Source: an uncultured Candidatus Saccharibacteria bacterium
GTDB taxonomy: Bacteria > Patescibacteriota > Minisyncoccia > Phycocordibacterales > DATDWN01
NCBI GenBank assembly: GCA_964468795.1
Contig: CAYXWL010000001.1
Location: 232,246-296,245, forward strand
DNA length: 64,000 nt
Direction: 5' to 3'
Below, piece after piece: positions 32,629-33,719 of this stretch (its first letter is position 1; each line of letters begins with the position of its first letter). The position numbers were made by a program, and so were the translations under genes. The notes beneath the pieces are model-generated. The model was not told the DNA's origin. It saw nothing but the letters and a program-made list of their open reading frames with translations, and did no database searches.

Positions 32629-33719
32629 ATGAAAATTTATAAGAATTTATATTGGTCAATAATTTCTCCTCAAGCACTATTTAAAGCTTGGGAGGTGTTT
32701 AAATCGGATAAGCGAAATAAGATTGATGTTTTGGAGTTTGAAAAACATCTTGAGAAAAATATTTTTGGTTTGTATAGGGATTTGAAAAATAAAAGATATA
32801 AACATGGAGCATATAAAGGATTTTGGATTCACGATCCAAAGATAAGAAGAATTCACAAGGCCACAGTTCGGGACAGAGTACTCCATCACGCAACTTTTTC
32901 TGTGCTTAATAAAATATTTGAACCAACTTTTATTACTGATTCCTATTCCTGTCGTATTAACAAAGGAACTCATAAGGGAGTGGAAGCCATAGCTAATATG
33001 CTTAGAATTGAGTCGAGAAATAATACTAGAACTTGTTATGCTTTGAAATGCGACGTGAGAAAATTCTTTGACTCTATTGATCACCAAGTACTCTTGGACA
33101 TTTTGAAAAGAAAAATCAAAGACACTAAAACGGTTTCTCTTCTTGAGGAGATTGTTAATAGCTACGATTCGTGCGGCACGTTGCGAGAGAGAGAGAGAGA
33201 GAGAGTAAAACGCTGTCGCTTTTTACTATGAATAACAAAGGGGTGCCTATCGGCAACCTGACTTCCCAGATTTTTGCCAATATTTATATGAATGAGTTTG
33301 ATCAATTTGTTAGGCATGAACTTAAAGTAAAATATTATGCAAGATATACAGATGATTTTGTCATTATATCAGAAAGCAAAGAATACCTTGAGGGACTATT
33401 GCCAAAATTGCAAAAATTTTTATCTGAAAAATTAAAACTTGAGCTACATCCAAATAAAATCACTATTCGTAAATACCACGAAGGAATAGATTTTCTAGGT
33501 TACGTCATATTTCCATATTACAAACTACTGAGAGCAAAAACGAAGAGGAGAATACTAAGAAATATACGAAAAAAGATGAGGAGTTTCCAAGAGGGACATC
33601 TCTCTAAAGAAAAACTAAACAGCAGTTTACAGTCTTATCTTGGAGTTTTGTCACATGCTGATACTTATGAGTTAACACAAAATCTCCAAAATCAATTTTG
33701 GTTTTGGATGAAGGAATAA
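32629..33719 (+). CDS. DGR reverse transcriptase, interrupted by a frameshift at a (GA)n tract (two ORFs 32629..33231 and 33171..33719)
   Basis: RT motifs 1-3 in the first ORF (RRIHKATVRDRVLHHA; CDVRKFFDSIDH); motif 4 GVPIGNLTSQIFANIYM (DGR-diagnostic IGNLTSQ) and motif 5 YARYTDDFVI in the second ORF; loss of 2 nt (one GA unit) or gain of 1 nt would fuse the frames. Confidence 0.8.
33185..33205 (+). repeat. (GA)~10 dinucleotide microsatellite inside RT coding sequence at the frameshift point
   Basis: cgagagagagagagagagagagt; encodes RERERER / ARERERE in the two frames. Confidence 0.7.

Follow-up and report, generated by a model that had tools for sequence, protein, structure and literature searches.

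The 64-kb window analysed here (64,000 nt of an uncultured Candidatus Saccharibacteria bacterium, GenBank assembly GCA_964468795.1, contig CAYXWL010000001.1, positions 232,246 to 296,245) carries a diversity-generating retroelement (DGR) whose reverse transcriptase (RT) gene is split by a frameshift at a GA dinucleotide tract. The letters at 33185-33205 are GAGAGAGAGAGAGAGAGAGAG, which corresponds to (GA)10+G, and Tandem Repeats Finder reported 10.5 perfect copies over the same positions. No other dinucleotide run of five or more units was present in the window, and dinucleotide-preserving shuffles gave 0.00 expected matches to such a tract. The tract has the repeat structure of a simple sequence repeat (SSR) contingency locus: a perfect repeat inside an open reading frame (ORF), with a unit length not divisible by three and a length far beyond chance. 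The tract and the two gene halves lie at the following positions.

33185..33205, forward strand: perfect (GA)10+G dinucleotide tract, the frame-shifting element; with 10 units the RT is out of frame and its C-terminal half is in the +2 frame
32629..33231, forward strand: N-terminal half of the RT (fingers, motifs 1-3), a 200-aa ORF that matches positions 8-107 of the RVT_1 profile and aligns with residues 4-170 of the Bordetella RT, bRT
33171..33719, forward strand: C-terminal half of the RT (motif 4 to thumb), a 182-aa ORF in the +2 frame that matches positions 115-205 of the RVT_1 profile and aligns with bRT residues 177-323

The ORF coordinates and the two RVT_1 halves confirm what a preliminary description of this DNA had reported, namely that the 200-aa and 182-aa ORFs overlap across the (GA)10 tract. 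As the Pfam RVT_1 profile is matched at 8-107 by one half and at 115-205 by the other, a single RT domain has been cut in two. Conserved coding sequence of the N half runs up to the tract and is followed by 8 out-of-frame codons and a stop, and that of the C half begins directly 3' of the tract (SKTLSLFTMNNKGVPIGNLTSQ...). The best solved relative of the repaired RT was Bordetella bRT (8ub7, E = 1.9e-47), with both halves aligned (query residues 3-174 with bRT 4-170 and 203-356 with bRT 177-323). The RERERER and ARERERE readings of the tract in its two frames are correct, and by this alignment the tract lies between motifs 3 and 4, directly upstream of PIGNLTSQ (motif 4), where the window RT has about 28 residues and bRT about 6. 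In bRT the corresponding residues I181, G182 and Q187 make contacts to the template base and to the incoming dNTP (bioRxiv 10.1101/2023.10.23.563531), so that the tract divides the fingers from the core responsible for catalysis and adenine mutagenesis.

We rebuilt the gene in silico with varied numbers of units. The halves were in frame with 0, 3, 6, 9 or 12 GA units, and the N half stopped at 200 aa with 10 units and at 193 aa with 11. Loss of one GA unit or gain of 1 nt had been proposed to give a single RT of 363 aa; both changes do restore the frame, the figure of 363 aa being correct for the added nucleotide and the 9-unit gene encoding 362 aa. An exact-protein lookup of the 200-aa N half matched no record.

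We retrieved the same locus from other assemblies by exact-sequence lookup of Avd, the accessory protein encoded next to the RT. The identical protein was present on at least 14 contigs, and the lookup yielded the locus from at least 10 contigs of ENA (SPAdes and MEGAHIT) and Logan assemblies, among which the tract took three lengths.

9 GA units: contigs L007 and L010; in frame across the tract
10 GA units: the window and L006, an independent Logan assembly; out of frame
11 GA units: contigs L001, L002 and L003; out of frame in the other register

The tract flanks were identical among the 9-, 10- and 11-unit contigs. L002 differed from the window by a single GA unit and by nothing else over 7,874 nt. 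A single uninterrupted RT ORF is absent from the window as well as from L001-L003. The 9-unit contigs are both short and neither spans the whole RT gene; the 362-aa ORF is the window sequence with 9 units. As these comparisons demonstrate, genomes that are otherwise identical differ in repeat number: the tract changes far more quickly than ordinary sites do, and alleles that are in frame (ON) and out of frame (OFF) coexist in the species of the window. Four short contigs (L004, L005, L008, L009) end at or near the tract, and one of them, the Logan contig L008, breaks off precisely behind (GA)10G, the point at which alleles of 10 and 11 units would branch. Lookup of the 163-aa downstream product retrieved one contig, the same as L003, and lookup of the DUF2177 neighbour gave no further tract alleles, its contigs stopping in a tRNA-Ser gene.

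The remaining parts of the retroelement are found on the other side of the RT start.

32278..32628, reverse strand: Avd accessory gene, 116 aa, divergent from the RT gene (PF22296 bAvd, E = 5.4e-17)
32114..32231, forward strand: template repeat (TR), a 118-nt inverted match to the variable repeat
30855..30972, reverse strand: variable repeat (VR), located at the 3' end of the target gene and matching the TR in inverted orientation over 118 nt
30849..31784, reverse strand: DGR target gene, 311 aa, without a Pfam domain and with the VR at its C-terminus (from the ORF, a Pfam search and the TR/VR comparison)

Apart from an uninterrupted RT ORF, the defining features of a DGR were found: an adenine-only TR/VR pair, a VR at the 3' end of the target ORF and an Avd gene adjoining the RT. 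Within 32114-32228 all 15 mismatches between TR and VR fell on TR adenines and none on other bases. The VR ends on the stop codon of the target gene, and PIGNLTSQ conforms to the motif-4 signature of DGR-clade RTs, (I/V/L)GxxxSQ. Ongoing mutagenic retrohoming was evident from the comparison with L001. Over approximately 8 kb this contig differs from the window by one GA unit, one TR single-nucleotide polymorphism (SNP) and its VR allele, which has 6 substitutions, all opposite TR adenines, and a 3-nt deletion. Mutagenic retrohoming has thus taken place very recently, and this in a population where the consensus RT is frequently out of frame.

The differences between the two VR alleles are confined to the 3' third of the VR (window 30878-30902), and the 3-nt deletion of one of them lies opposite an AAC-rich part of the TR. 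This pattern fits partial cDNA replacement from the initiation of mutagenic homing (IMH) end combined with RT slippage. The TR SNP of L001 is G>T (window 32157) and is not found in the L001 VR.

Next, one genome per species was scanned for such tracts irrespective of frame, with (GA)5 followed 20-50 nt downstream by PIGNLT codons as the search pattern. At least 119 species genomes, almost all of them Patescibacteria, had a perfect (GA)n tract at this position of the RT; the matches listed, to which the following locus counts refer, included Saccharibacteria, Berkelbacteria, Wolfebacteria, Paceibacterota, Doudnabacteria, Uhrbacteria, Peregrinibacteria and others. Without exception these tracts were perfect and uninterrupted, with 5-35 units and a median of 10. 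We derived the register from the frame of the N half, determined with a hidden Markov model, relative to the PIGN frame, and ten loci checked by eye upheld the calls. Among the 118 matches listed, 27 were in frame, 50 at +1 and 41 at +2, so that 91 (77%) were out of frame; as the scan demanded at least 5 perfect GA units, the in-frame fraction refers to tract-bearing RTs alone. The phenomenon is broader than the preliminary description, made from the window, had suggested, being family-wide, mostly out of frame and accompanied by an adjoining hairpin (see below).

A comparison with orthologous DGR RTs for the RE-repeat insert had been suggested in the preliminary description. In a protein search with the repaired RT most relatives were 349 aa long and had no insert, and a subset carried (RE)n of varying n at the position of the tract, e.g. 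ERERERERESK, QERERERERER and QERERESK versus QERESK. N-half identity among tract-bearing RTs was 51% in the median and went down to 26%. Tract-bearing and tract-less RTs interleave in a rough neighbour-joining (NJ) tree, which is indicative only, being built from in-frame proteins and with a crude NJ/Fitch mapping of gains and losses. In 808,578 nt of DNA flanking these loci there were 5 other dinucleotide runs of at least 5 units, each of exactly 5 units of CG, GC or TG, and no GA/TC run of at least 5 units. This near-absence of other runs indicates that the genomes are not generally rich in SSRs and that the tract is specific to its site.

A metagenome scan anchored on clade-specific downstream sequence gave 8 loci, none of them from the species of the window, and revealed a second polymorphic species with about 75% nucleotide identity to the window. 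This species had been sampled five times in one study and once in GTDB, and its tracts had 6, 6, 6, 6, 7 and 12 units at 97-99.8% identity. Two further loci filed under different species genomes (L077 and L097) have 1,080 nt of identical flanks and tracts of 14 and 13 units. Both also carry a TAG at a conserved Trp codon (TGG>TAG) in the N half, 46 codons upstream of the tract. We rejected an alternative genetic code as the explanation, as TAG at this Trp codon is a true nonsense mutation; this RT copy may be decaying, and because of the nonsense mutation we do not count the pair as a clean ON/OFF example.

Larger differences in tract length were seen too. The Wolfebacteria loci L011 (35 units) and L051 (17 units) encode RTs that are 91% identical, and L012 (10 units) and L108 (27 units), compared at the hairpin downstream of the tract, are near-identical there. 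This shows that large tract expansions occur and that change is not confined to single-unit steps. At L053 (TC)8 is followed immediately by (GA)14, a compound repeat that forms a perfect long palindrome, and at L055 and L096 a G8-9 homopolymer directly follows the GA tract as a second slippery run. Several loci with a GA tract in an RT of the type found in the candidate phyla radiation (CPR) bear other taxonomic labels, namely Gammaproteobacteria (L021, L036, L074, L077), Bdellovibrionales (L022, L069) and Actinomycetota (L039). This suggests mis-binning or mislabelling of metagenome-assembled genomes from co-assemblies, or horizontal transfer.

The out-of-frame genes do not have the appearance of decaying genes. 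Among listed loci with room for both halves, both were uninterrupted in 73 of 76 out-of-frame genes (96%) and in 22 of 24 in-frame genes. In the clade of the window, where 12 of 13 representatives are out of frame, the pairwise ratio of nonsynonymous to synonymous substitution rates (dN/dS, omega) among out-of-frame genes had medians of 0.043 over 63 N-half pairs and 0.047 over 46 C-half pairs, with dS in these pairs ranging from about 0.15 to 2 and in part saturated. Judged by these sequences, the out-of-frame genes are under strong purifying selection in both halves. An adenine-biased TR/VR pair was kept at 43 of 62 out-of-frame and 10 of 20 in-frame listed loci, with 94% and 96% of the mismatches, respectively, at A. 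The conservation of the N frame extends up to the tract and that of the C frame starts right after it (…AGT AAA ACG CTG…, encoding SKTL…), so the two frames must join within the tract.

To see what the repeat encodes we modelled a natural in-frame homolog with 13 units (P0070, the protein of locus L083) with AlphaFold, which returned a mean predicted local distance difference test score (pLDDT) of 88.2 and a predicted template modelling score (pTM) of 0.84. The sole segment with a pLDDT below 50 was residues 182-195, 'GFTRERERERESKN'. By this model the repeat encodes a flexible, disordered (RE)n surface loop, which explains the tolerance of any in-frame length.

Adjoining the tract on its 3' side is a hairpin, the stem of which starts on the last AG of the tract.

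33204..33227, no strand assigned: palindromic hairpin at the 3' end of the tract, AGTAAAA.GC(TGTC)GC.TTTTTACT (-5.2 kcal/mol as DNA, z = -2.4)

Family-wide, the segment 3' of the tract had a mean minimum free energy (MFE) of -6.07 kcal/mol, compared with -2.31 and -3.55 kcal/mol for in-gene controls of the same length (Wilcoxon p = 2e-11), and an MFE of -5 kcal/mol or lower was reached at 53% of the loci versus 15-26% of the controls. The stems are unrelated between lineages (CCGAAGGC/GCCTTCGG, CAATTCTTGC/GCAAGAATTG and GGCGC/GCGCC), that is, the structure of the hairpin is conserved and its sequence is not. Folding was alike on both strands (-5.97 sense, -6.28 antisense), and the presence of the hairpin was unrelated to the frame state. 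Neither the tract nor the hairpin had a match in Rfam.

The explanation that we favour, and hold to be probable, is that (GA)n is a slipped-strand contingency locus which gates DGR mutagenesis and is mostly OFF. Replication slippage would gain or lose GA units of 2 nt each, and every such step would put the C-terminal half, from motif 4 onward, in or out of frame with the N half. At 9 or 12 units the product would be a full-length RT with (RE)n as a disordered surface loop, and the DGR would rewrite the VR of the target gene. With 10 or 11 units the truncated N half alone would be produced and mutagenic retrohoming would stop; going by their sequence, OFF alleles would lack RT activity. The state would be heritable and would revert at a rate far above that of point mutation, so that a population would always hold a diversifying minority while the majority keep their current VR. 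A lineage that has acquired a useful VR variant and then slips OFF would preserve that variant, a form of second-order selection that would also explain why the sampled genomes are mostly OFF. The palindrome at the tract probably promotes or stabilises slippage. The slipped-strand ON/OFF reading had been offered in the preliminary description and gains support from the in-frame and out-of-frame repeat-number alleles within one population; slippage as the mutational process, selection for a switch and the part assigned to the hairpin are deductions from these patterns.

Several observations weigh against such a switch. In-frame tracts, at 27 of the 118 listed loci, are rarer than the one third expected under neutrality (binomial p = 0.019), and tracts of 5-8 units, which are presumably less mutable, are in frame at only 5 of 33 listed loci. 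The second polymorphic species is out of frame in 6 of 6 samples, and two lineages that are dS 0.28 apart, both with 6 units and out of frame, show an omega of 0.012. The independence of the samples from the window's own species is uncertain, as the read sets behind some of the ENA and Logan assemblies may overlap. The in-frame deficit, the 6 out-of-frame samples and the omega of 0.012 would be simpler to understand if expression were independent of the DNA frame. RNA polymerase or the ribosome might slip by +/-2 nt on (GA)n and give full-length RT from any allele; GAG and AGA codons pair perfectly again once shifted by 2 nt. Tract and 3' hairpin would then form a dose-limiting rheostat, and DNA length variation would be a tolerated by-product. 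This would account for a frame that is unconstrained or biased away from in-frame among the matches listed (27/50/41), for short tracts that are mostly out of frame, for the very strong purifying selection on genes with an out-of-frame consensus and for a frame change that must fall inside the tract. A structure directly 3' of a slippery run is moreover the canonical layout of ribosomal frameshift sites, and compensatory low-level frameshifting over indels in repeat runs is known, e.g. at the G-run of the herpes simplex virus (HSV) thymidine kinase gene, described in the part of a major recoding review available to us (PMC5009743). On the other hand, close relatives, and members of one population, include alleles of both shift classes as well as in-frame ones, which speaks against a single programmed shift. 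The hairpin folds without sense-strand bias and a DNA-level palindrome fits it at least as well, dinucleotide tracts go unmentioned in the same part of that review, and since in-frame DNA alleles exist DNA switching alone would be sufficient. On balance we consider frame-independent expression unlikely. In its most specific form, out-of-frame alleles would yield full-length RT by hairpin-assisted +/-2-nt slippage at a previously undescribed dinucleotide-repeat recoding signal spread across Patescibacteria, with the genomic frame largely irrelevant and a low RT dose set by tract length, layered on the DNA switch or replacing it; we hold this fuller proposal to be about equally unlikely. A fixed programmed frameshift was rejected, as all three registers occur among homologs and differ within single populations. 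Removal or bypass of the tract as a unit (mini-intron, translational bypass) was likewise rejected, as the flanks after deletion of the tract are in registers 0/1/2 at 36/44/38 of the listed loci.

We regard it as improbable that the tract is a non-adaptive microsatellite, i.e. that a (RE)n loop has turned into a pure GA repeat and the out-of-frame alleles are deleterious mutations awaiting purge. Such a view is in keeping with a loop that tolerates any length, with the tract-less relatives of 349 aa, which are the majority of the family and evidently functional, and with other lesions in some tract-bearing copies (the TAG at the Trp codon of L077/L097, and L111, which is disrupted). It is hard to reconcile with the 77% of listed species consensus genomes that are out of frame, which is not what mutation-selection balance would give at an omega of about 0.045. 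It would also leave unaccounted for that tracts are perfect across RTs down to 26% N-half identity and that a palindrome conserved in structure accompanies them, and no other GA tracts exist in the 808 kb of the same genomes. A dead DGR with an RT pseudogene, or a split RT that assembles from two polypeptides, is very improbable. The RT does lie in two ORFs and the GTG at 33171 could start the C half. Inactivity with a decayed TR/VR pair, considered in the preliminary description, is contradicted by 15/15 mismatches at TR adenines, by VR alleles of near-clonal genomes that differ only at TR-A sites and by the purifying selection (omega about 0.045); the TR/VR pair is undecayed and was recently active, and 96% of the out-of-frame genes have no other lesion. 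As to a split protein, the C frame has an ATG between its last stop and motif 4 at 25 of the 91 listed out-of-frame loci and lacks a start codon of any kind at 30 of the 91, for which reason a separately initiated C half was rejected; moreover, conservation of the C frame begins exactly at the tract and not at a start codon. Least credible of all is an assembly or sequencing artefact, with a true tract that is in frame and 10 units arising by dinucleotide stutter or consensus error. Dinucleotide runs are indeed error-prone, and the four contigs that break off around the tract are what such errors could produce. Nevertheless, 10 units were reproduced by the independent Logan assembly L006, SPAdes, MEGAHIT and Logan together gave 9, 10 and 11 units with identical flanks, the same assemblers differing between samples, and same-site tracts occur in at least 119 species. 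The 91 out-of-frame cases among the 118 listed species representatives come from many studies and assemblers and include easily sequenced tracts of 6-8 units. The assembly comparisons at this locus exclude both the artefact and the dead pseudogene.

Poly-G, tetranucleotide and similar tracts in genes of Neisseria, Haemophilus and Campylobacter are established contingency loci. A CT dinucleotide tract in the coding region of Helicobacter pylori sabA is another SSR contingency locus (PMC2715451, PMC4081817). The (GA)n tract resembles these in being a perfect short-unit repeat inside an ORF, with a unit that is not a multiple of 3 and a number of units that varies among otherwise identical genomes and shifts the frame, and in the OFF state of many sampled genomes. 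It differs in the gene that would be gated, a polymerase of targeted mutagenesis instead of a surface, lipopolysaccharide or restriction-modification gene, and in its position in mid-gene within a loop of the catalytic domain, such that ON alleles carry a variable (RE)n insert. Also unlike these loci, it is found at one site across RTs down to 26% identity in many CPR classes and is adjoined by a hairpin.

Reversible general mutators are known in which tandem-repeat or prophage-excision switches act on mutL or mutS. The proposed switch would likewise be a heritable and reversible change of mutation capacity for which second-order selection favours OFF after adaptation, but mutagenesis would be confined to one variable region of about 100 nt, whereas the mutL/mutS switches affect mismatch repair genome-wide. 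The prototype DGR of Bordetella phage BPP-1 (bRT/Avd/TR/VR; 8ub7-8ube) shares PIGxLTSQ, Avd, an adenine-only TR/VR pair and a VR at the 3' end of the target; its RT has about 6 residues where the RT studied here has about 28 and, in contrast to the latter, is not interrupted by a hypervariable repeat. With programmed frameshifting and transcriptional slippage (IS elements, dnaX, HSV thymidine kinase; PMC5009743, in its available part) the locus has in common a repetitive, potentially slippery run followed by a stem-loop and two halves in different frames that join in the run. The recoding signals covered there are homopolymeric or heptameric and of fixed direction, whereas the tract is a dinucleotide repeat of 5-35 units with three registers among close relatives and no sense-strand bias.

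Phase variation by SSRs is well known, as are DGRs; their proposed combination, an SSR gating a DGR, conserved superphylum-wide and mostly OFF, would be a new variant. In the literature searched, including the text of the main DGR surveys, no account of an SSR or frameshift switch in the RT of a DGR was found, a mention in the CPR survey of Paul et al. 2017 being possible. Wu et al. 2018 discarded over half of their candidate DGRs for premature stops, truncations and similar defects (PMC5758913), and the text of the DGR survey of Roux et al. 2021 does not mention frameshifts. Surveys and gene callers treat such RTs as broken, and protein databases show the in-frame minority alone. With about 3.4 out-of-frame loci for every in-frame tract-bearing locus among the matches listed, the prevalence and activity of DGRs in CPR are probably underestimated. 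How DGR mutagenesis is controlled is a standing question, as unrestrained retrohoming would erase its own useful variants. Our results point to a testable answer for CPR/Patescibacteria, a stochastic and heritable repeat-tract switch inside the RT gene. Such a switch would be a natural system in which localized hypermutation (SSR) is linked to targeted hypermutation (DGR), with evolvability controlling evolvability. Were recoding the true explanation, the tract would represent a new class of recoding signal.

Some features of the surrounding DNA concern the cassette as a whole. Directly upstream of the TR, at 31945-32117 on the forward strand, is a sub-threshold Rfam match to RT-16 RNA (RF03019; 26 bits against a gathering score of 50, E = 0.62), which is not significant alone and may belong to the RNA scaffold of the DGR. 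GC content is 0.53-0.58 in the 3' half of the target gene and the TR versus 0.32-0.40 in neighbouring genes (30800-31800). The target gene is flanked by a gene for a large serine recombinase (Resolvase, Recombinase and Zn ribbon domains; 29426-30757). On the other side of the RT a tRNA-Ser (GCT) gene lies at 33793-33883 on the reverse strand, and contigs from both sides end inside it, with the end of L003 at 33819 and the starts of L141, L143 and L142 at 33835, 33841 and 33881, respectively. A stretch of 20 nt at 34044-34063 repeats the 5' end of the tRNA-Ser gene. The DGR cassette may belong to an island that has inserted at or close to tRNA-Ser, possibly one that is present in some members of the population and absent from others.

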